A DNA stretch of 46,375 nucleotides from Escherichia phage N15. This document shows positions 2,696 to 42,475 of the stretch, piece after piece. The notes beneath the pieces are model-generated. The model searched no databases and was not told the origin of the DNA. It was given only the letters and a program-made list of their open reading frames with translations. Both the position numbers and the translations under genes were made by a program. The stretch's first letter is position 1; each line of letters opens with the position of its first letter. The stretch is from the sequence record NC_001901.1, one strand, 5' to 3'.

Positions 2696-4284
2696 AAATA
2701 CCATCTTTAGTGGGACCTGACGGGAAAACATCCCTTCGGGAATACGCGGGATATCATGGAGGTGGTGGCGGGTTTGGTGGTCAGCTGCGAGGCTGGAATC
2801 CGCCGAGCGAAAGTGCAGATGCAGCACTCCTTCCCAACTATTCTCGTGGAAATGCCCGCGCTGACGATCTGGTGCGAAATAATGGCTATGCGGCAAATGC
2901 CGTGCAGCTCCACCAGGACCACATCGTCGGGTCATTTTTCAGACTCAGTTATCGACCAAGCTGGCGTTATCTGGGTATTAATGAGGAAGATTCACGCGCA
3001 TTTTCGCGGGATGTGGAAGCTGCATGGAATGAGTATGCCGAGGATGACTTTTGCGGGATTGATGCCGAACGTAAGCGCACGTTTACGATGATGATCCGCG
3101 AAGGTGTGGCCATGCATGCGTTTAACGGTGAATTATGCGTGCAGGCGACCTGGGACAGCGATTCAACGCGTCTTTTCCGCACCCAGTTCAAAATGGTCAG
3201 TCCGAAGCGCGTCAGCAACCCGAACAATATCGGTGATACCCGGAACTGTCGTGCCGGTGTAAAAATCAATGATAGCGGTGCTGCGCTGGGATATTACGTC
3301 AGCGACGATGGCTATCCCGGCTGGATGGCGCAAAACTGGACCTACATCCCTCGCGAACTACCCGGCGGTCGACCTTCGTTTATCCATGTATTCGAACCGA
3401 TGGAGGATGGACAGACCCGTGGGGCCAATGCGTTTTACAGCGTGATGGAGCAGATGAAAATGCTCGACACCCTGCAAAATACCCAGCTCCAGAGCGCGAT
3501 AGTGAAGGCTATGTATGCGGCTACCATCGAGAGTGAGCTGGATACCCAATCGGCGATGGACTTTATTCTCGGTGCAGATAATAAAGAGCAGCAGAGCAAA
3601 CTGACGGGCTGGCTCGGCGAAATGGCAGCCTATTACTCTGCTGCGCCGGTTCGCCTTGGCGGGGCAAGGGTCCCACACCTGTTGCCAGGGGATTCTCTTA
3701 ACCTTCAGTCGGCGCAGGATACCGATAACGGCTATTCAACGTTCGAACAATCCCTGCTGCGTTATATTGCTGCAGGGCTGGGTGTGTCGTATGAGCAGCT
3801 TTCACGAAATTATTCGCAGATGAGCTACTCGACCGCACGCGCAAGTGCTAACGAGTCCTGGGCGTACTTTATGGGGCGTCGAAAGTTTGTGGCATCCCGA
3901 CAGGCCTGTCAGATGTTTCTTTGCTGGCTTGAAGAGGCGATTGTCCGCCGCGTGGTCACGCTTCCTTCGAAAGCCAGGTTCAGTTTCCAGGAGGCGAGAA
4001 CAGCCTGGGGGAATGCCAACTGGATTGGTTCTGGTCGAATGGCAATTGACGGTCTGAAAGAGGTGCAGGAAGCCGTCATGCTAATCGAAGCAGGTCTCAG
4101 TACGTATGAGAAAGAGTGCGCCAAACGCGGTGATGATTATCAGGAGATTTTTGCCCAGCAGGTCCGGGAATCAATGGAGCGTCGTGCTGCGGGTCTGAAC
4201 CCACCGGCATGGGCCGCTGCCGCTTTTGAGGCTGGAGTGAAAAAATCAAACGAGGAGGAGCAAGATGGCGCACGAGCTGCGTAA
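2692..4284 (+). CDS. Portal protein (lambda gpB-like)
   Basis: 530 aa in the lambda B position, overlapping its neighbours. Lambda-B-like blocks such as [14 protein letters not shown]. Confidence 0.95.
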
Positions 4285-5608
4285 TCTTCCGCATATTGCC
4301 AGTATGGCCTTTAATGAGCCACTGATGCTTGAACCCGCCTACGCGCGGGTTTTCTTTTGCGCGCTGGCTGGCCAGCTGGGTATCACCCGGCTGACAGATA
4401 CTGTCGCTGGCATCACGCTTGATGCAGGACAAATTGCCGAACCGCTGGCGTTATTTGGTGATGATGATGACATGGAACCCCGTCCATCACGCAGTTATCA
4501 AGTGGCAAATGGTGTCGCAGTTTTACCCGTTTCCGGCACGCTGGTCAGTAAAACCCGCTCGCTGCAGCCTTATTCCGGCATGACGGGTTACAACGGGATC
4601 ATCGCTCGCCTGCAGCAGGCAATCAGTGACCCCGGCGTAGATGGCATCCTGCTGGATATGGATACGCCAGGCGGAATGGTGTCCGGGGCATTTGACTGCG
4701 CCGACATTATTGCCCGTATGCGCGATATCAAACCCATCTGGGCGCTGGCCAATGACATGAACTGCAGCGCAGGGCAGCTTATTGCCAGTTCAGCATCGCG
4801 GCGGCTGGTCACACAAACGGCCAGAACCGGATCCATCGGGGTCATGATGGCGCACAGCAACTATGGTGCTGCGCTCAAAACTAACGGCGTTGAGGTCTCG
4901 CTGATTTACAGCGGCGATCACAAGGTCGACGGCAACCCTTACGAAAAACTACCAGAAGATGTGCGTGCTGATTTCCAGACGCGTATCGATGCCACTCGTC
5001 AGATGTTCGCCGAAAAGGTTTCCGCTTATACCGGTATGTCCGTTCAGGACGTACTGGACACCGAAGCGGCAGTATTCTCCGGCCAGGAGTCAGTGGACAA
5101 CGGTTTGGCGGATGAACTTGTTAACAATACCGATGCGCTCGGCGTGATGCGCGAAGCACTCGACAGACGCAAAAAAATAACCATTGGAGGAACTATGCCA
5201 TCACCTTCTGCATCAGCTGTGGCCACTAAGCCAGCTGACCAGGCAGCAACTCAGACAACTGCCTCAGCTGAACAGGTCACTACCGTTGACACGACCATTG
5301 CTTCCGTAGAGGCCCCTGTAGATGTCAGTGCGCAGGTCACTGCAGCAGTAGCTGCAGAGAATAGCCGCATCATGGGCATCCTGAACTGTGAAGAGGCGAA
5401 AGGGCGTGAGTCACAGGCGCGTGCACTGGCCGAAACGCCGGGTATGACGGTAGAGAGTGCACAGCGCATTCTGGCGGCTGCACCGCAAAGTGCCCAAGCG
5501 CGTACCGACACGGCGCTGGATCGTCTGATGGAAACAGCACCAGGCGCACTTTCAGCAGGCAGCGCATCTTCTGATGCCGCTGACGATTTGTTAAACACCC
5601 CAGTTTAA
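4265..5608 (+). CDS. Prohead protease / scaffold (lambda gpC-like, S49 ClpP-type)
   Basis: Position after portal. S49-type block GILLDMDTPGGMVSGAFD...NCSAGQLIASSAS. Ala/Gln-rich C-terminal scaffold part. Confidence 0.9.
   Translation: MAHELRNLPHIASMAFNEPLMLEPAYARVFFCALAGQLGITRLTDTVAGITLDAGQIAEPLALFGDDDDMEPRPSRSYQVANGVAVLPVSGTLVSKTRSLQPYSGMTGYNGIIARLQQAISDPGVDGILLDMDTPGGMVSGAFDCADIIARMRDIKPIWALANDMNCSAGQLIASSASRRLVTQTARTGSIGVMMAHSNYGAALKTNGVEVSLIYSGDHKVDGNPYEKLPEDVRADFQTRIDATRQMFAEKVSAYTGMSVQDVLDTEAAVFSGQESVDNGLADELVNNTDALGVMREALDRRKKITIGGTMPSPSASAVATKPADQAATQTTASAEQVTTVDTTIASVEAPVDVSAQVTAAVAAENSRIMGILNCEEAKGRESQARALAETPGMTVESAQRILAAAPQSAQARTDTALDRLMETAPGALSAGSASSDAADDLLNTPV
5195..5608 (+). 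CDS. Nested in-frame scaffolding protein (lambda Nu3-like)
   Basis: In-frame ATG at 5195 preceded by GGAGG (5187..5191). Same arrangement as lambda C/Nu3. Confidence 0.6.
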   Translation: MPSPSASAVATKPADQAATQTTASAEQVTTVDTTIASVEAPVDVSAQVTAAVAAENSRIMGILNCEEAKGRESQARALAETPGMTVESAQRILAAAPQSAQARTDTALDRLMETAPGALSAGSASSDAADDLLNTPV

Positions 5609-32800: not shown

Positions 32801-33860
32801 TGATGTCGAATCCGGTGCGGAGGCCTGTGTTGCCTTTTCCTTCAGCTGAGGATTTGCGGTCGTTATCGAGAGCGCAAGTGATTTGCGCAGCCGGGTACAT
32901 GTTCACCAGCTGCTCGACAACGTGAATCATGTTGTTAGCGGAAACCGCAATGACTACCGCGTCAAAGCGTTTTTTCGGGTCGTTTCTGGTCGCCAGCCAG
33001 ATGGATGCCCCGGTGGCGAAACCCTCTGCAGTCGCAATTTTTTGCGCCCCCTGCAGGTCGCCAATAACAAAGCATGCACCGACGAAATCACCGTTAGTGA
33101 TGGCGCTGGTCTGGAACTTGCCACCATTCAGATCGATACGTTGCCAGCCAACAATCCGCCCGTCTTTTCTTCCGTCCAGGTGGGACAGAGGTATCGCCAT
33201 GTAAGTTGTTGGTCCACGGCTCCATTTCGCACTGTCGTGACTGGTCACGCGACGTATATCACAAGCGCCAAATACGTCACGAATTCCCTTTTTTACCGCA
33301 TAAGGCCAGGAGCCATCTTCAGCTGGCGAATGTTCCCAGGCGCGATGGAAAGCCAACCATCCAAGCAGGCGTTCCTGCTCCATCTGATTGTTTTTTAAAT
33401 CATTAACGCGTTGTTGTTCAGCTCGGAGGCGGCGTGCTTCAGCCTGGCGCTCCATGCGTGCACGTTCTTCTTCCGGCTGAGCGACCACGGTCGCACCATT
33501 CCGTTGCTGTTCACGGCGATACTCCGAAAACAGGAATGAAAAGCCACTCCAGGAGCCAGCGTCATGCGCTTTTTCAACGAAGTTAACGAAAGGATAACTG
33601 ATGCCATCCTTGCTCTGCTCAAGGCGTGAATAGATTTCCACACGGCCTTTAAGGCTCTTCTGCAGAGCTTCCGGGGAGGAATTATTGTAGGTGGTATAGC
33701 GCTCTACACCACCGCGCGGATTGAGCTGAATCTTATCAGCACACGCAGGCCAGTTGATACCGGCCATCTTCGCCAGCTCAGTCAGCTCATCACGTGCCGC
33801 GTCAAGCAGTGAAAACGGATCGCTGCCAAAGCGCTCCGCGTAGAATTCTTGTAAGGTCAT
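29886..33860 (-). CDS. repA: Replication protein RepA (primase / Toprim plus helicase multidomain replicase)
   Basis: 1324 aa. Toprim-like TAEGFATGASI...CALDNDRKSSAEGKGNTG. Walker A VRAGMGSGKST. Plasmid-type replicase known as the only N15 gene needed for plasmid replication. Confidence 0.95.
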   Translation of the reverse strand: MTLQEFYAERFGSDPFSLLDAARDELTELAKMAGINWPACADKIQLNPRGGVERYTTYNNSSPEALQKSLKGRVEIYSRLEQSKDGISYPFVNFVEKAHDAGSWSGFSFLFSEYRREQQRNGATVVAQPEEERARMERQAEARRLRAEQQRVNDLKNNQMEQERLLGWLAFHRAWEHSPAEDGSWPYAVKKGIRDVFGACDIRRVTSHDSAKWSRGPTTYMAIPLSHLDGRKDGRIVGWQRIDLNGGKFQTSAITNGDFVGACFVIGDLQGAQKIATAEGFATGASIWLATRNDPKKRFDAVVIAVSANNMIHVVEQLVNMYPAAQITCALDNDRKSSAEGKGNTGLRTGFDIMEKFSGVKCVYPTFEDDPELECSDFNDLHSLRGLKEVARQLTRNHLSRATDLLSITLNKLRTLPRLNRRTFAKELLRAVDIGMLTCPVPNSPKELMRLFSSTLRDMGIAEIYNGTVKDHITRRLNRKCRAAQTSRSFSERITNPNLRPSHITYKRFETSRMTDEVMTYAAQLQGIVIVRAGMGSGKSTGLLRPLMLQSTRGVSVAHRVSLIGGLHEMMTEGKGAKADILHYQDPGYQEMAPYANKLTICINSILKGCWQPLMRQHDFFGFDEATQGLRAILAGRAMENPVGVFNTLIDALARTEEHAIMVDADANDLLVDLAELAMKRREELGLPAWLQIHVIELPVDVRNRETNKPIRVFYTEKNRIMTEVIAAVQRGERIMLATDSSTFAEDVTMQLRLQFPDKKFLCVNQKNKQEKEVDDFTNQPKVMVKKYDGLIYSPSISSGVSIEEKHFHRHFGMFCGEVVPSDAIQMLRRDRTAQEYIIGFDKLRGKRETDPEKIKRAYAQALLETAGHSGLLTDVVFDGDRISLGVANSSFMQLKIKAAALEASARNDYASNMICIMHDDGYQVAPMATDALANSIGKDLRKEARELVFEQLMERHLSVDTPDQAEHDELIKKRTLSLDEQAQLVRWDIEKELQLDVDEVALKFYFDGGLKKVRLFETMQLDEITARRLDREEALIHFTYAYRVAGRWQQFVTTAMTREQADAEFQAKFPAITDYRVKSTPAVEIGMRGFYTLKSATLQQYFRDCGIDPKTLEGEADMDALKRARDNLLTPERRDLLNNVLRIGGFNTEKGKKKAPADLCIGILESMGLSSKTRRARDGDARPTMRSIDPDSVEFLMNIVEKRREAGLSIHARKVEKTTIEVDRDLDLNIDIHGNPRSKTEHVPDAPQSVIIQALEAIPVAVPEAWAENALPATEMEAVRLWPVASIARTFASLYMTEFMDLLSVREIRLLKAFLSQRQAVAI
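30141..30215. other. ori: Candidate replication origin core inside the 3' part of repA
   Basis: TTGGATC / GATCCAA inverted repeat (30141..30147, 30175..30181) flanks the AT-rich catgtatatctatattta. Several GATC sites. GGTGG-tttttt-CCACC hairpin. The N15 ori is reported to lie within the repA 3' region. Confidence 0.3.
33479..33496. promoter_or_regulatory. Centromere-like palindrome (SopB site) inside repA
   Basis: GAGCGACC-AC-GGTCGCAC, one arm mismatch relative to the other three sites. Architecture resembles F sopC TGGGACC-AC-GGTCCCA. Confidence 0.7.
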
Positions 33861-34108: not shown

Positions 34109-34717
34109 TCATCTACCCTCAACCATGAACGATTTGATCGTACCGACTACTTGGTGCACAAATTGAAGATCACTTTTATCATGGATAACCCGTTGAGAGT
34201 TAGCACTATCAAGGTAGTAATGCTGCTCGTCATAACGGGCTAATCGTTGAATTGTGATCTCGCCGTTATTATCACAAACCAGTACATCCTCACCCGGTAC
34301 AAGCGTAAGTGAAGAATCGACCAGGATAACGTCTCCCGGCTGGTAGTTTCGCTGAATCTGGTTCCCGACCGTCAGTGCGTAAACGGTGTTCCGTTGACTC
34401 ACGAACGGCAGGAATCGCTCTGTGTTGGCAGGTTCTCCAGGCTGCCAGTCTCTATCCGGTCCGGTCTCTGTCGTACCAATAACAGGAACGCGGTCTGGAT
34501 CAGATTCAGTGCCATACAGTATCCATTGCACGGGCTTACGCAGGCATTTTGCCAGCGATAGCCCGATCTCCAGCGACGGCATCACGTCGCCACGTTCTAA
34601 GTTTTGGACGCCCGGAAGAGAGATTCCTACAGCTTCTGCCACTTGCTTCAGCGTCAGTTTCAGCTCTAAACGGCGTGCTTTCAGTCGTTCGCCTCGTGTT
34701 TTCATACCCTTAATCAT
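34109..34717 (-). CDS. cB: Prophage repressor CB (HTH_XRE N-domain plus degenerate S24/LexA-like C-domain)
   Basis: KARRLELKLTLKQVAEAVGISLPGVQNLERG HTH. C-domain YALTVGNQIQRNYQPGDVILVD is CI/LexA-like. Divergent from cro. Confidence 0.9.
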   Translation of the reverse strand: MIKGMKTRGERLKARRLELKLTLKQVAEAVGISLPGVQNLERGDVMPSLEIGLSLAKCLRKPVQWILYGTESDPDRVPVIGTTETGPDRDWQPGEPANTERFLPFVSQRNTVYALTVGNQIQRNYQPGDVILVDSSLTLVPGEDVLVCDNNGEITIQRLARYDEQHYYLDSANSQRVIHDKSDLQFVHQVVGTIKSFMVEGR

Positions 34718-34777: not shown

Positions 34778-34793
34778 TTATTGATTATAATAA
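34778..34793. promoter_or_regulatory. Operator 3, overlapping a TATAAT hexamer (34783..34788) just upstream of cro
   Basis: TTATTGATTATAATAA with the same TTAT....ATAA ends. The TATAAT sits only 10 nt before the cro ATG. Confidence 0.55.
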
Positions 34794-34798
34794 TCCCC

Positions 34799-35014
34799 AT
34801 GAAACCCGAAGAACTTGTGCGCCATTTCGGCGATGTGGAAAAAGCAGCGGTTGGCGTGGGCGTGACACCCGGCGCAGTCTATCAATGGCTGCAAGCTGGG
34901 GAGATTCCACCTCTACGACAAAGCGATATAGAGGTCCGTACCGCGTACAAATTAAAGAGTGATTTCACCTCTCAGCGCATGGGTAAGGAAGGGCATAACA
35001 GTGGAACTAAATAG
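34799..35014 (+). CDS. cro: Cro-like repressor (YdaS/Cro HTH family)
   Basis: MKPEELVRHFGDVEKAAVGVGVTPGAVYQWLQAGEIPPLR, 71 aa, divergent from cB. Confidence 0.85.
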   Translation: MKPEELVRHFGDVEKAAVGVGVTPGAVYQWLQAGEIPPLRQSDIEVRTAYKLKSDFTSQRMGKEGHNSGTK

Positions 35015-35747
35015 CATTCGGGCCTGTGTATCTACGGCTCTGTCAGATATTCATTATCTCCAGCGCGGCATCCTTGAGGTCCAGCTGGAGCAGCTGCGTC
35101 TCGCAAGCTCTGACCGTTTCACTGACAAACCAACCAGAACGATCTGCATCGGCGATACGGAATCTTATGAAATCTCTGTGCCTGCCGAACCCGTTCGTTA
35201 TCACGTTGGTAAATCCTTCAAACGGTCTTCAATGCTGCTGACTGAATTAGATTTCATGACCGCCAGCTGGCGACGTGCCATTGAGCAGTTAAACAGTGAA
35301 GAAACTGCATGGTTGCATTATTGCTATGGATGCAAACCAAATTATAAGAATGATGTAACTGTTTGCCAGTGGCTGTGGATGGATTTTTTAATTGCGCATT
35401 CCAGAGCGGGCTTTAAAAAAATGAAAGCCCCAACAAAAAAAATTATGCAGAGATTAACTTACTACGGAATACAGCAAGTTAAATGTGAAATATTTCACGA
35501 ACTGCATGATTCGGATATTGATGGAATGGAGCGAGACGAACACATAAGTTCTTTAGTGGGTGTATCCGTCGAAAGCTGGCGTAAGGATTATAAAAAACGC
35601 TGGTTATTACTGAAATCACGATGCATGCATCTTAACGATACCGCGTTATTAAATGCGGCGGAGAAGCGCTGTGAAATCATCGAAAGCCATCGTGCAAGAA
35701 GTGCCGACCTGCCTGTGTCAGCAGGTTATGCTCAGGAAACCAGATAA
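35001..35747 (+). CDS. Q: Late-gene antiterminator Q-like protein
   Basis: Follows cro. GTG at 35001 after AAGGAAG (an in-frame ATG at 34959 is an alternative). N15 gene order cB-cro-Q is established. Family assignment is from position and memory. Confidence 0.65.
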   Translation: MELNSIRACVSTALSDIHYLQRGILEVQLEQLRLASSDRFTDKPTRTICIGDTESYEISVPAEPVRYHVGKSFKRSSMLLTELDFMTASWRRAIEQLNSEETAWLHYCYGCKPNYKNDVTVCQWLWMDFLIAHSRAGFKKMKAPTKKIMQRLTYYGIQQVKCEIFHELHDSDIDGMERDEHISSLVGVSVESWRKDYKKRWLLLKSRCMHLNDTALLNAAEKRCEIIESHRARSADLPVSAGYAQETR

Positions 35748-35973
35748 GCCTGTACTCCGGTACTCTGGCCTCCGTAACGAGTACATCATCTGGTGCCCGA
35801 CATGCGGCTATCGGACTCTTCCTGACAGTAACAGGCAATCCGTAATTACTGAATGGTATTTATCAAATCAACCAGGCAACAAGCATATAGAAAATATCTG
35901 GCTCAAACGTTATCTGGAAATCAAAGAGGGTGCGACCTCGGTCGCACGAGATAATGAAGAATACTCCATTTAA
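35653..35973 (+). CDS. Small Cys4 zinc-ribbon protein, Lar (restriction alleviation)-like
   Basis: PTCLCQQ...YIIWCPTCGYRT...SVITEWY fits the C-x-C...CxxCG...W pattern of Lar-family proteins. Overlaps the Q 3' end. Start uncertain (35653 or GTG 35671). Confidence 0.5.
   Translation: MRRRSAVKSSKAIVQEVPTCLCQQVMLRKPDKPVLRYSGLRNEYIIWCPTCGYRTLPDSNRQSVITEWYLSNQPGNKHIENIWLKRYLEIKEGATSVARDNEEYSI
35930..35947. promoter_or_regulatory. Centromere-like palindrome (SopB site)
   Basis: GTGCGACC-TC-GGTCGCAC with perfect 8-bp arms. Confidence 0.75.
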
Positions 35974-36157
35974 GCAAGGCCCCATGTCGCGCACTGATGC
36001 GGAAAATATTTCTGACCTTTATAAGAAAAAAGGTCATGAAGTAGTTATCGCAGAATCCATGAATTTAGATGGAACTTATTATGTTTACGTTACGCTACCT
36101 GAATTAAAGCAAGAGCCTAAGCCATCCAAAACCTTTCAACAAAGAATATGGGAGTAA
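35954..36157 (+). CDS. Hypothetical protein
   Basis: 67-aa ORF from the ATG at 35954. Ends 2 nt before the RBS-linked start of the next gene. Confidence 0.5.
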   Translation: MKNTPFKQGPMSRTDAENISDLYKKKGHEVVIAESMNLDGTYYVYVTLPELKQEPKPSKTFQQRIWE

Positions 36158-36159
36158 CA

Positions 36160-37074
36160 ATGGTAAATATCCAAAAAACGATTTTAGCGATGATTATGCA
36201 TAAATGGCTTAAGAGCGATTATGTTGTCATTGACACGGAAACAACAGGGCTGGGCGAATATGCTGAGATTATCGAAATTGCGATCATCAATATGCGCGGA
36301 GAAGTTTTGCTGGACACTTTGGTTAAACCGACCAAACCGATCCCTCCTGAAGTAACCGAAATAAACCACATCACAAACGAAATGGTCGCCAGTGCACCAG
36401 CGTGGTGTGATGTGTTCCCGAAGGTGCTGGCGATCATCAGTAAACACAAATGGCTGGCCTGGAATTCTGGTTTCGATGCTCGCATGCTGGAACAGACCTG
36501 CTTGAACACGATTTTTTTAAATAAAAATGCTTATTACGTGACCGCAATGGTTTCCCGTATTCACACGAGCCATATTGACGCTAAAGCAGTCTACGACACG
36601 TGGTACGGAGAGTACGATGCGAAGCACCAGGCTTTCAAGCGCCAGAGCCTGACAATCGCAGCTGCCCGACACGGTGTATTGCTGGAAGGAGCACACCGCG
36701 CTCTGGCCGACTGCAAAATGGTTCTGGCCGTACTGCAAAAAGTCTGCGCTCCCGTTCCTCAGATTGAAAGCTCTGTCGAGAAAGACCTGCCACCCTGCCC
36801 GTTCTGTTATGGGCCACCATCGTTGTTCACCCATTACCTGAATGACAAAGGCTATTCCCCTTTATATCAGCCCGTGAATTATGGCGATGATGGCCTGTAC
36901 GTAGGTTCGTATGTCTTTTGCCATGAATGCGGCGCACAGGGTGAAGAAGTAGGAGGCCACGCCTACGAAGATTCAGATGTAGAGCAGCTCGAAGCAGCAG
37001 CCAGGAATGTCTGGTCCGATCGCAACGAACGCCACCGCGACCTGTATACAGCCTCTCGAAACGTCGAAGAGTAA
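36160..37074 (+). CDS. DEDDh (DnaQ-like) 3'-5' exonuclease fused to a C-terminal Lar-type zinc ribbon
   Basis: Exo I VVIDTETTGL, Exo II AWNSGFDARML, Exo III GAHRALADCKM. C-terminus LPPCPFCYG...YVFCHECGAQG...AARNVWSDRN. GGGAG lies 5 nt before the ATG. Confidence 0.8.
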   Translation: MVNIQKTILAMIMHKWLKSDYVVIDTETTGLGEYAEIIEIAIINMRGEVLLDTLVKPTKPIPPEVTEINHITNEMVASAPAWCDVFPKVLAIISKHKWLAWNSGFDARMLEQTCLNTIFLNKNAYYVTAMVSRIHTSHIDAKAVYDTWYGEYDAKHQAFKRQSLTIAAARHGVLLEGAHRALADCKMVLAVLQKVCAPVPQIESSVEKDLPPCPFCYGPPSLFTHYLNDKGYSPLYQPVNYGDDGLYVGSYVFCHECGAQGEEVGGHAYEDSDVEQLEAAARNVWSDRNERHRDLYTASRNVEE

Positions 37075-39895: not shown

Positions 39896-40183
39896 TCAAT
39901 ACACAGCATGAATATCAATGCTTGCACCGCAAGCCTTAGCGTATCGAGATAGTGTCTTCATGCTGGCACCTAGTGGGTTGCTTTCCAGGCGGCTAATTGC
40001 TGATGGCTGCAACCCCATGCGTTCAGCCAGCGCAGACTTCGTCAGGCCAGCTTTCTCCCTCATCTCGTAGAGCATTTCAACCATCGCCAACTCCTTGTCG
40101 GCATCTTCGTAACCCCGGATAGCCTCCGGGGTATTGAGCAGTTCTTCTTTCACCTGATTAAATGGGATGCCTTTTACTTTCAT
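39896..40183 (-). CDS. Antitoxin, HTH_XRE family (HigA-like)
   Basis: REKAGLTKSALAERMGLQPSAISRLES HTH. Start overlaps the toxin stop. Confidence 0.8.
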   Translation of the reverse strand: MKVKGIPFNQVKEELLNTPEAIRGYEDADKELAMVEMLYEMREKAGLTKSALAERMGLQPSAISRLESNPLGASMKTLSRYAKACGASIDIHAVY

Positions 40184-40494
40184 TAGCTCATCTCCTTCAG
40201 ACGCGTTCTGGCGATATCAATTGCGTGGGTAGGCGTCTTTTGCGTCTTCTTAACAAATGCATGTAGCAGATAAATTTCGTTACCTACCGCGTAAGCGTAC
40301 AGCGTTCTCGCTATGTTTTTATCCCCTACCCTTAGTTCGAAAAGGCCACCACCGATAACGCGGCTATGAGGCATTTTCAGCTTGTTCCCTTCACTTTCCA
40401 GTCTCTCGATCAGCCGGGTCATGCGACCGCGTAGCTCATCAGGTAATTCTTTAAGCTCATCCAGCGCTGCCGGGTGGGTTATCACGTTAAACAT
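40183..40494 (-). CDS. Toxin of the Gp49 / HigB-RelE superfamily
   Basis: MFNVITHPAALDELKELPDELRGRM...GGGLFELRVGD...RTLYAY...IYLLHAFVKKTQKTP fits the Gp49-like family. ATG at 40494 after AGGAGGT. Confidence 0.8.
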   Translation of the reverse strand: MFNVITHPAALDELKELPDELRGRMTRLIERLESEGNKLKMPHSRVIGGGLFELRVGDKNIARTLYAYAVGNEIYLLHAFVKKTQKTPTHAIDIARTRLKEMS

Positions 40495-40516
40495 AGTATA
40501 ACCTCCTGATGTGGAA

Positions 40517-40571
40517 AATATACTAAAAACGTAAAAATCACACAATAGGCAAATTTCACTAAAAAGTGAAA
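40517..40571 (-). promoter_or_regulatory. Toxin-antitoxin promoter (TTGTGT-17-TATATT) with upstream TTTCAC-N6-GTGAAA palindrome
   Basis: On the minus strand the -10 is at 40517..40522 and the -35 at 40540..40545. The palindrome is at 40554..40571. Confidence 0.5.
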
Positions 40572-40660
40572 AATAAAGCTGGATGTGCTTATTGGGCAGA
40601 GTTACAGTTTGTGTCGTTGAGAGGGGTAAAGCCCATAACCGCATGAATCTGGAGTAAATT

Positions 40661-41122: not shown

Positions 41123-41142
41123 CGTGCGACCATGGTCGCACG
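41123..41142. promoter_or_regulatory. Centromere-like palindrome (SopB site), perfect 20-bp
   Basis: CGTGCGACCATGGTCGCACG. Lies 20 bp upstream of the candidate late promoter -35. Confidence 0.8.
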
Positions 41143-41250: not shown

Positions 41251-41386
41251 GTGCCTGAAAAAGTGGGCGCGGGACGAGTTGCAGCTCATCCCGCGGTCAA
41301 CCCATGCCAGAGGTATAGGCTGAACCCAAAGCCCACCCGCGATGCGCATCGCTGGGTTAGCTTACCCAGGCAGAACCATAATAGCT

Positions 41387-42475
41387 ATGTTAAAAACTAC
41401 ACAAATCAATGGAGCGCAGCTCGTTTGCGCAGATTCTCTGCAATTCATAAAAACCATCCCTGATAATTCCGTAAACCTGATCGCGACAGACCCGCCCTAT
41501 TTTGGCGTTAAGTCGAACGACTGGGACAACCAGTGGGAAAGTGACGCGGACTTTTTGGGCTGGCTTGATGAGTTTCTGGCGGAGTTCTGGAGGATACTGG
41601 CCCCAAATGGAAGCCTGTATATGTTTTCCGGTTCGCGGCTTGCGGCAAAAGTTGAATTACTTACCCGCGACCGTTTCAATGTTTTGAACCACATCACCTG
41701 GGCTAAACCGAGCGGTGTATGGCGGCGGCAAAATAAAGAGAGCCTGCGAGCATTCTTCCCGGCAACCGAGCGCATCATATTCGCTGAACATTACGGCGCG
41801 TCTGGCTATGCGAAAGGTCAGTCGGGTTATGCCAGCAAATGTGCAGAGTTGCGGAAAGACGTATTTTCTCCGTTGATTGGAGCATTTGCATCAGCCCGAC
41901 AGCAGCTGGGGATTTCAGCTGCGGACATCAACGCTGCGACAGGGAAAAAGATGTGTTCACACTGGTTTTCCTCGTCGCAGTGGCAGTTACCGTCGCTGGA
42001 TGACTTCAACAAGCTGCATGAGCTGTTTATGCAGCGGGCGCAAGTTCTCGGCGTAGCATGTCCTCCGCCATTCGATATCGGGTATAGCGAGCATGAAAAG
42101 CAGTATGCCGATCTAAAAACGCAATACGATGCGGTTAAAGCGCAATACGATGGCCTTAAGGCTCAGTATGAAAGCCTGCGCCGCCCGTTCTCTGTGACTG
42201 CAGATGTTCCCTATACGGATGTTTGGGAGTTCCCACCGGTGCAGTATTACCCAGGGAAACACCCGTGCGAGAAGCCAGCTGCGATGATGGAACATATCAT
42301 CAGGAGCAGCTCTCGCCCCGGCGATGTAGTCGCCGACTTCTTCATGGGGTCCGGTAGTACGATTAAGGAGGCTCTGAAGCTTGGGCGTAAGGCCATAGGC
42401 GTAGAAATTGAAGAAGAGCGTTACCTGCAGACAGTAGAAGAAGTTAAAGAAGTAGTAAAAAAAGAAGAGAGTTGA
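41387..42475 (+). CDS. DNA N6-adenine/N4-cytosine methyltransferase (beta class, PF01555-type)
   Basis: Motif IV IATDPPYF near the N-terminus and motif I DFFMGSGST near the C-terminus. Confidence 0.85.
   Translation: MLKTTQINGAQLVCADSLQFIKTIPDNSVNLIATDPPYFGVKSNDWDNQWESDADFLGWLDEFLAEFWRILAPNGSLYMFSGSRLAAKVELLTRDRFNVLNHITWAKPSGVWRRQNKESLRAFFPATERIIFAEHYGASGYAKGQSGYASKCAELRKDVFSPLIGAFASARQQLGISAADINAATGKKMCSHWFSSSQWQLPSLDDFNKLHELFMQRAQVLGVACPPPFDIGYSEHEKQYADLKTQYDAVKAQYDGLKAQYESLRRPFSVTADVPYTDVWEFPPVQYYPGKHPCEKPAAMMEHIIRSSSRPGDVVADFFMGSGSTIKEALKLGRKAIGVEIEEERYLQTVEEVKEVVKKEES

Follow-up and report, generated by a model that had tools for sequence, protein, structure and literature searches.

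Gene 41 of Escherichia phage N15 (36160..37074, + strand, in sequence record NC_001901.1, whose 46,375 nucleotides are the window analysed here) is predicted to encode a catalytically intact DEDDh 3'-5' exonuclease of the DnaQ/PolC/ExoX-like type that runs, within a single polypeptide, into a true homologue of Lar, the restriction-alleviation protein of the Rac prophage of E. coli. The fusion is lineage-restricted, conserved and built from known parts. Both of its domains are already annotated together in precomputed Pfam data and reflected in its names at NCBI ('exonuclease domain-containing protein' and 'Lar family restriction alleviation protein'), and the N15 'dnq' gene was already noted as CP81/epsilon-like in the U45242 record. 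As to its function, we tentatively favour interference with the host.

An exonuclease domain joined to a Lar zinc ribbon

Gene 41 has the following features, given in window coordinates.

36160..37074, + strand: gene 41, exonuclease plus Lar ribbon, 304 aa; 100% identical to P0001 'Gp41' (PF00929+PF14354)
36223..36735, + strand: DEDDh (DnaQ/RNase T-type) 3'-5' exonuclease domain (Pfam RNase_T 3.9e-25; phrog_192 2.1e-52)
36232..36243, + strand: Exo I motif DTET (D25, E27), aligned with IIDTETCGL of ExoX
36463..36477, + strand: Exo II motif NSGFD (D106); the fusion P0037 has N here
36694..36711, + strand: Exo III motif HRALAD (H179, D184), of the 'h' type, aligned with HRALYDC of ExoX
36751..36789, + strand: hypervariable inter-domain linker, aa 198-210
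36781..37026, + strand: Lar-family Cys4 zinc ribbon with two insertions (Lar_restr_allev 2.2e-12; hhalign to Rac Lar)
36796-36807, + strand: first knuckle CPFC (C213, C216)
36919-36930, + strand: second knuckle CHEC (C254, C257)
~37006-37026, + strand: NVW..RN motif, with the conserved Trp W285 at 37012-37014

The start codon at ATG 36160 has GGGAG 5 nt upstream, and the homologues of gene 41 begin with MVNIQ or MINIQ, in keeping with this start; ATG 36148 has no ribosome-binding site. The protein goes by the names 'Gp41' and 'DNA polymerase exonuclease subunit' in the databases.

Its N-terminal part was recognised by Pfam RNase_T (89.7 bits against a cutoff of 24) over aa 26-196 of the 308-aa open reading frame (ORF), and the DnaQ-like motifs DTET, NSGFD and HRALAD, to which an earlier note on this DNA had drawn attention, are all intact. 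When 38 exonuclease-bearing sequences were aligned, DTET was kept in every one of them and the complete DEDDh residue set in 37. The AlphaFold2 (AF2) model of the protein is a confident two-domain one, with a mean predicted local distance difference test score (pLDDT) of 86.9 and exonuclease-domain blocks mostly at ~90 or above. With this domain, Foldseek retrieved from the Protein Data Bank (PDB) Pol III epsilon, the PolC exonuclease, the DinG exonuclease, the DnaQ domain of S. thermophilus and ExoX at E values of 8e-9 to 4e-7, Pol III epsilon being the top match (E 8.4e-9, TM(target) 0.73), and the RNA-specific DEDDh enzymes ranked below the DNA exonucleases. Because the nearest structures are DNA exonucleases, we infer that the substrate of gene 41 is DNA 3' ends. 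The earlier note had considered degradation of a nucleic-acid signal or guide. Since DEDDh exonucleases require a free 3' end, a cyclic signal would be an improbable substrate, and possible ones are DNA ends or linear guides. Gene 41 thus shares the fold and all five catalytic residues with Pol III epsilon, the PolC exonuclease, ExoX and the DinG exonuclease, but it differs from these DEDDh DNA exonucleases in carrying a zinc-ribbon tail and in having neither a polymerase or helicase partner domain nor the alpha/clamp-binding segment of epsilon.

The ribbon that makes up this tail was recognised by Pfam Lar_restr_allev (47.5 bits against a gathering cutoff of 28.6), with residues 212-293 spread across the 58-position model, that is, with insertions, and it also matches phrog_599 (Lar-like). 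An exhaustive HMMER search with the C-terminal domain yielded 139 cluster representatives, where a word-indexed search had returned 6 proteins, and in an alignment of 42 diverse members of this Lar subfamily taken from them the four Cys and the Trp were invariant. When the Rac Lar protein (RalR, from MG1655) was compared with the subfamily by hhalign, Lar residues 5-57 were aligned at a probability of 95.8% (E 6.5e-9). The Pfam match, the invariant Cys and Trp and the alignment to Rac Lar therefore identify the C-terminus as a true homologue of Rac Lar with two insertions and an added C-terminal helix, and they bear out the restriction-alleviation type of ribbon that had been read from the motifs. 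Both proteins show a CPFC knuckle, a beta hairpin, a CxxC knuckle and a helix with W-N-x-R. They differ in that Rac Lar is a 64-aa stand-alone protein whereas the gene 41 ribbon is fused to an enzyme and has two insertions of ~25 aa in total, between and after the knuckles, as well as an extra C-terminal helix (RHRDLY...). The AF2 model places two helices after the ribbon, behind a low-confidence linker (pLDDT <50 at residues 201-207). A profile search of the PDB for a solved Lar-family structure gave nothing better than E 1.1, and the matches to gene 41 in the PDB and BFVD span the exonuclease domain only, with no two-domain structural twin among them.

Conservation of the fusion and its split counterparts

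Among 1513 relatives of gene 41, the combination of RNase_T and Lar is confined to the closest ones (100-51% identity), which come from Escherichia, Enterobacter and metagenomic contigs. In 18 aligned fusions the exonuclease domain is 51-86% identical and the Lar domain 51-97%, with the linker ranging from 8 to 100%; the DEDHD residues are present in 17 of the 18 and the four Cys plus Trp in all of them. The two domains have diverged in parallel, and purifying selection acts on each.

The more divergent fusions, P0049 and P0045, lie in a gene order like that of phage PY54, in which Q is followed by a ribbon gene, a 71-74-aa gene, RdgC, a 66-aa gene and the exonuclease-Lar fusion, and then, downstream, by Dam, DinI, HicB (L092 and L093) and an N6 methyltransferase. 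The slot behind RdgC and the 66-aa gene holds the RNase_T-Lar fusion in loci L092 and L094 and an Rv2179c-like gene in Serratia, and it thus appears to be constant while the family of exonuclease in it varies. Three loci illustrate this non-orthologous displacement (L004 2973-3719, L003 2403-2975 and L092 5001-5927).

In PY54 itself, gene 51 encodes an Rv2179c-like DEDD exonuclease (Pfam 1.9e-68), and directly 3' of it lies a Lar gene, ORF52, whose product belongs to the same Lar subfamily and is 40.8% identical to the C-terminus of N15 gene 41. The ATG of ORF52 follows a GGAGG and overlaps the stop codon of gene 51, which points to translational coupling of the two genes. In Serratia PY54-like elements the Lar gene lies 1.6-2.4 kb past the exonuclease gene in the same operon, immediately before Dam, and its stand-alone product is 54% identical to the gene 41 C-terminus. 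PY54 and the Serratia elements hence resemble N15 in having a DEDD-superfamily exonuclease and a long-insert Lar in the same early operon, but the two are separate polypeptides and the exonuclease is of another family than that of N15; BLASTP detected no significant similarity between the Rv2179c-like proteins and the N15 exonuclease domain. Because of the fusions, the coupling in PY54 and the shared operon in Serratia, a 3'-5' DEDD exonuclease and this Lar subfamily appear to be recurrent operon mates in enterobacterial telomere phages.

Stand-alone DnaQ-like exonucleases of other phages (phiKO2 gp39, 186 CP81 and those of VP882, MAR and VHML) are homologous to the gene 41 domain, with identities from 62% (phiKO2) down to 38% (186), but have no ribbon. 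The neighbour of the exonuclease in 186/P2-like phages is a TraR/DksA-type zinc finger and not a Lar protein.

Catalytic partners of other kinds were sought in the Lar subfamily by scanning 29 of its longer proteins with Pfam, which recognised the Lar domain alone, and among the 139 cluster representatives P0026 is the single identifiable exonuclease fusion cluster. A recurrent 238-aa ORF in other prophage contigs (L036-L038, L040-L042, L044, L046 and L048; ~3596-4312) carries the Lar subfamily at its C-terminus behind ~135 residues that match nothing in Pfam, an extension that is either real or an artefact of taking the longest ORF.

Position of gene 41 in the cro-Q operon

The region around gene 41 is organised as follows.

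ends at 33860, minus strand: repA
34109-34717, minus strand: cB
34781-35014: cro, which precedes Q
35001..35747, + strand: antiterminator Q (Pfam Phage_antiter_Q 1.4e-110; start as in U45242)
35671..35973 (open from ATG 35653), + strand: small Cys4 ribbon gene (phrog_6795 7e-40; codon-phase switch)
35710-35718, + strand: first knuckle, CLC, of this ribbon gene
35794-35805, + strand: second knuckle, CPTC, of this ribbon gene
35954..36157, + strand: conserved 67-aa gene (phrog_1212 1.2e-16), between the ribbon gene and gene 41, with a homologue also in phiKO2

The immB record U45242 is 99% identical to the N15 region, and in its annotation CB represses the promoters from which the cro-Q operon is transcribed. 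Along the stretch from cro-Q to gene 41 there is little space between stop and start codons, and a consensus scan, which is weak evidence and did not locate the Q-dependent late promoter, predicted neither a promoter nor a terminator on the + strand from Q to gene 41. Both ribbon genes hence seem to lie within the operon that follows cro-Q, as had been supposed, and gene 41 is probably co-transcribed with cro-Q. A series of close-set + strand genes continues 3' of gene 41.

Possible roles of gene 41

Although it falls somewhat short of an even chance, the reading that we favour is that gene 41 serves host interference, either as a counter-restriction factor or by interfering with repair, with the Lar ribbon as an adaptor that holds the exonuclease. 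Gene 41 arose when an exonuclease gene was joined in frame to a Lar gene, the two being held separately within one operon by sister phage-plasmids. It would be expressed with cro-Q as part of the lytic programme. The ribbon would then act as a recognition or adaptor module and hold the DNA 3'-end exonuclease at the ribbon's target, and the whole protein would be a dispensable host-interference factor. The context of RdgC, Dam, DinI and methyltransferase genes in relatives, together with the DNA-exonuclease structures, suggests such a dispensable exonuclease on a Lar adaptor, in which the two modules presumably cooperate, and the Lar family and the context make an anti-defence role plausible. 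In PMC4041452 and PMC11482910, which cite King & Murray (1995), Rac Lar is described as mediating restriction alleviation and modification enhancement against type I restriction-modification (R-M), and restriction alleviation is the only genetically defined activity of the Lar family. The essentiality of a Lar homologue in Bas63 depends on the host (PMC11482910).

A more specific form of this proposal, which we consider improbable, is that the ribbon docks the 3'-5' DNA exonuclease on a complex of the host's defences, or on the DNA or guide product of such a complex; a type I R-M enzyme that has stalled on phage DNA lacking modification would be one example. The Cas2-DEDDh fusions of CRISPR adaptation (PDB 8fyc; Foldseek E 2.6e-6 on the DEDDh domain) offer an analogy only, in that their partner domain positions a tethered DEDDh exonuclease to trim 3' ends; the partner domain and the biology are unrelated, and there is no CRISPR context in N15. 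As the earlier note had supposed, a literature search found no described function for an exonuclease-Lar fusion, and it found none for N15 gene 41, 186 CP81-type exonucleases or long-insert Lar proteins.

Several observations weigh against host interference through a Lar adaptor. Gene 41 scores 18.5 bits with TIGR03655 anti_R_Lar, under the cutoff of 39.6, because the insertions break this short model. Lar was defined genetically in 1995 and no mechanism was found in the literature searched, which weakens the adaptor reading, and RalR has been reported to be a DNase toxin that acts on DNA in vitro (PMC4041452). The RdgC, DinI and Dam context fits interference with DNA repair or recombination at least as well as it fits anti-defence. 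Exonuclease-only homologues of ~200 aa (~202 aa in phiKO2 and Klebsiella) occur in phiKO2, Klebsiella and some Salmonella elements, and in many Salmonella homologues the C-terminus is extended by something else, in some cases Ea22-like. The exonuclease gene has a deletion-fusion hotspot at its 3' end, and therefore the tethering may not reflect a joint mechanism and the fusion may be a by-product of deletions. A general Lar-exonuclease neighbourhood was also considered and rejected: among 80 viral loci with the gene 41 Lar subfamily, 15 have the fusion and 5 an Rv2179c-like exonuclease at <=4 kb, and the other 60 have neither exonuclease type within 4 kb, in a count made with two narrow HMMs that may miss distant DEDD enzymes.

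A serious alternative, though an unlikely one, is that gene 41 is an enzyme of phage DNA metabolism that trims 3' ends in recombination, repair or replication intermediates, with a ribbon that binds DNA or DNA ends and with no anti-defence role. In PY54-like orders the exonuclease slot comes close after RdgC and has DinI downstream, the nearest structures are proofreading and repair DNA exonucleases, and in 186/P2-like and Vibrio phages the stand-alone homologues belong to the early or the replication region. The in vitro activity of RalR on DNA and the position of Rac lar/ralR directly 3' of recE-recT would also suit an enzyme of this kind. Nevertheless, restriction alleviation is what genetics has defined for the ribbon family, an epigenetic or anti-restriction theme would account equally well for the neighbouring Dam and N6 methyltransferase genes, no nuclease gene lies near most Lar subfamily members, and DNA binding by the ribbon is putative.

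In the Rac prophage of E. coli K-12 (L091 3734-7387), ralR/lar lies immediately 3' of recE-recT, an exonuclease/recombination module.

Rather more doubtful is a fortuitous fusion, that is, two independent accessory functions joined by deletion with no coupling between them, as in a 'polyvalent protein'. The same exonuclease is found alone, with Ea22-like segments, with read-through from phrog_1212 or with the tail of the 38474-38893 gene beyond Lar. In P0024 and P0082 the upstream phrog_1212 gene reads through in frame into the exonuclease, and P0037 and P0040 go on past Lar, with residues 314-360 that match the C-terminal 47 aa encoded by the N15 38474-38893 gene (53% identity, E 5e-13), which in N15 lies three genes downstream of gene 41. 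The hypervariable linker with its low model confidence and the separation of Lar and exonuclease in most genomes point the same way. However, the fusion has lasted in no fewer than two gene orders, the N15-like and the PY54-like, its domains have diverged to ~50% identity with all ligands intact, and PY54 couples a non-homologous exonuclease to the same Lar subfamily, all of which argues for a link between the two modules.

The two remaining explanations are far less probable. An alternative epsilon subunit, recruited to host Pol III for proofreading while the phage replicates, would agree with the database name 'DNA polymerase exonuclease subunit' and with the top Foldseek match, but it is rejected because gene 41 lies under every NCBIfam epsilon-type equivalog cutoff, scoring 42.7 bits against 222.7 for dnaQ_proteo (TIGR01406) and 52.4 against 71.5 for the dnaq subfamily (TIGR00573), and because the matches end with the exonuclease domain, residues 211-304 being the Lar ribbon and the stand-alone relatives stopping at ~200 aa. 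The C-terminal segment of epsilon binds the alpha subunit and the clamp, and in gene 41 the ribbon stands in its place. The homologues are not ordinary proofreading subunits. Just as hard to credit is a prophage nuclease for defence or superinfection exclusion against other phages, to which the PADLOC matches (Cas-associated DEDDh, 4.7e-28; PDC-S48, 2.2e-17) and the capacity of DEDDh exonucleases to restrict RNA phages (PMC13344964) would lend themselves, since gene 41 lies behind the CB-repressed cro-Q promoters and should be silent in lysogens, and since those matches are at the level of the domain and the nearest structures are DNA enzymes. A defence-system assignment was accordingly dropped, PADLOC having given the generic DEDDh and PDC-S48 domain matches alone.

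The ribbon gene that overlaps Q

The small ribbon ORF upstream of gene 41 is a real gene under selection in its own frame, because it has homologues in telomere phages and because the codon phase of variation switches at the end of Q. The homologues were found only in telomere phages. In N15 (35653-35747) and in the phiKO2, PY54, Serratia and Vibrio K242-type genomes examined (L002, L004, L008 and L009), the ribbon gene shares ~60-95 nt with the 3' end of Q in a different reading frame, with protein identity across these genomes down to ~29%. For the codon-phase test, variable alignment columns were counted in 11 N15/phiKO2-type sequences. In the stretch that encodes Q alone they peak at Q codon position 3 (18/34); within 35700-35744 they shift to the third position of the small ribbon ORF (9/13), where they remain downstream of Q (47/68). 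The segment in which the phase switches encodes the first knuckle (VPTCLCQQVM). In the frame of Q it corresponds to the 15 C-terminal residues, beyond the reach of the Pfam model, since Phage_antiter_Q stops at residue 247 of the 262-aa Q ORF.

The gene is likely to start at GTG 35671, because a GGAG precedes this codon by seven bases and the resulting protein has 100 aa, as the homologues do, and ATG 35653 lacks such a site; the U45242 annotation starts at ATG 35728 and, through sequence differences, merges the ORF with the next one as 'orf QD1'. Depending on the start, the last 77-95 nt of Q overlap the ribbon gene. The earlier note had placed a Cys4 ribbon ORF here, and the gene and its CLC...CPTC ribbon stand; it had been said to overlap gene 41, but the overlaps are with the 3' end of Q and with the start of the 35954..36157 gene. 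It is apparently absent from the N15 gene numbering, which passes from Q (gene 40) to the exonuclease (gene 41).

The pattern CLC...CPTC is present in the N15-, phiKO2-, PY54-, Serratia- and Vibrio K242-type homologues, and the CLC knuckle is kept in PY54, Serratia and Vibrio phage K242, the last of which has an unrelated Q tail. Vibrio phage MAR gp53 has CLGC where the others have CLC. This 139-aa protein (L010 2303-2722) contains two tandem zinc ribbons, of which the second belongs to the family of N15 ORF 35653 and the first gives a weak Pfam Lar match (E 0.054), and it is possibly an evolutionary bridge between the two ribbon families. Its gene adjoins RdgC-like and other genes, with no Q among the annotated neighbours.

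The kinship of this ribbon to Lar is less firm than that of the gene 41 ribbon. No Pfam or NCBIfam family was found for the ORF at E<=1; it matches phrog_6795, a 'Lar-like restriction alleviation protein', at 7e-40. Its alignment to Rac Lar by hhalign is weak (23.6%, E 8.6e-4); both knuckles and the Trp helix line up in it. With an AF2 model of medium quality (mean pLDDT 66.8, core ~85), Foldseek placed 13 named restriction alleviation proteins, 5 of them 'Lar family', at ranks 2-37 in BFVD with weak E values of 0.04-0.28. The fold, the PHROG label and the profile similarity thus weakly support a Lar-like ribbon. The claim that its layout is the same as that of the gene 41 ribbon holds for the four Cys and the two knuckles, but the first knuckle is CxC, there is no Pfam Lar match, and the ORF 35653 family aligns with the gene 41 Lar subfamily at only 3.9% by hhalign. 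A shared subfamily for the two ribbons was rejected on this last value, kinship not being demonstrated by it.

The overlap with Q, conserved from E. coli to Vibrio telomere phages, suggests that the two genes are coupled in translation and perhaps linked in function. The upstream ribbon may thus not be a restriction alleviator at all but a protein that partners Q and is made by coupled translation.

Other features of the region

The 3' end of the upstream ribbon gene also contains a palindrome of the sopC centromere type. The 18-bp sequence GTGCGACC-NN-GGTCGCAC occurs in 4 copies in the N15 genome against 0.14 expected, and these are dispersed sopC-type centromere sites of the linear plasmid prophage. 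The copy in the ribbon gene fixes the peptide EGATxVA in its 3' coding end, and the equivalent site of phiKO2 is annotated as a 'putative plasmid partitioning site'.

33479-33496: palindrome GTGCGACC-NN-GGTCGCAC
35930..35947: palindrome GTGCGACC-TC-GGTCGCAC, within the 3' end of the ribbon gene
41124-41141: palindrome GTGCGACC-NN-GGTCGCAC
45561-45578: palindrome GTGCGACC-NN-GGTCGCAC

A Gp49/HigB-like toxin and helix-turn-helix (HTH) antitoxin pair lies at 39896-40644 on the minus strand, opposite to the surrounding right-arm operon. Downstream of this pair, at 41342-42475, N15 encodes an N6_N4 DNA methyltransferase (3.6e-50).

Significance

The value of gene 41 lies in the clue that it gives to the action of the Lar ribbon and to the role of the widespread DnaQ-like exonucleases of phages. 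A natural and conserved fusion of Lar with an exonuclease suggests that the ribbon acts at DNA or at a DNA-bound complex. If the targeting reading were true, gene 41 would represent an undescribed nuclease-assisted form of counter-defence and would provide the first mechanistic handle on Lar proteins, and N15 is a tractable E. coli phage in which the pairing of Lar and exonuclease can be tested. If the fusion were fortuitous, the locus would still record deletions that make multi-domain proteins in a phage accessory operon. The label 'DNA polymerase exonuclease subunit' is routinely and wrongly given to DnaQ-like exonucleases, which are common in temperate phages, among them 186/P2-like and telomere phages, so that the function of one of them, once shown, would correct many annotations.

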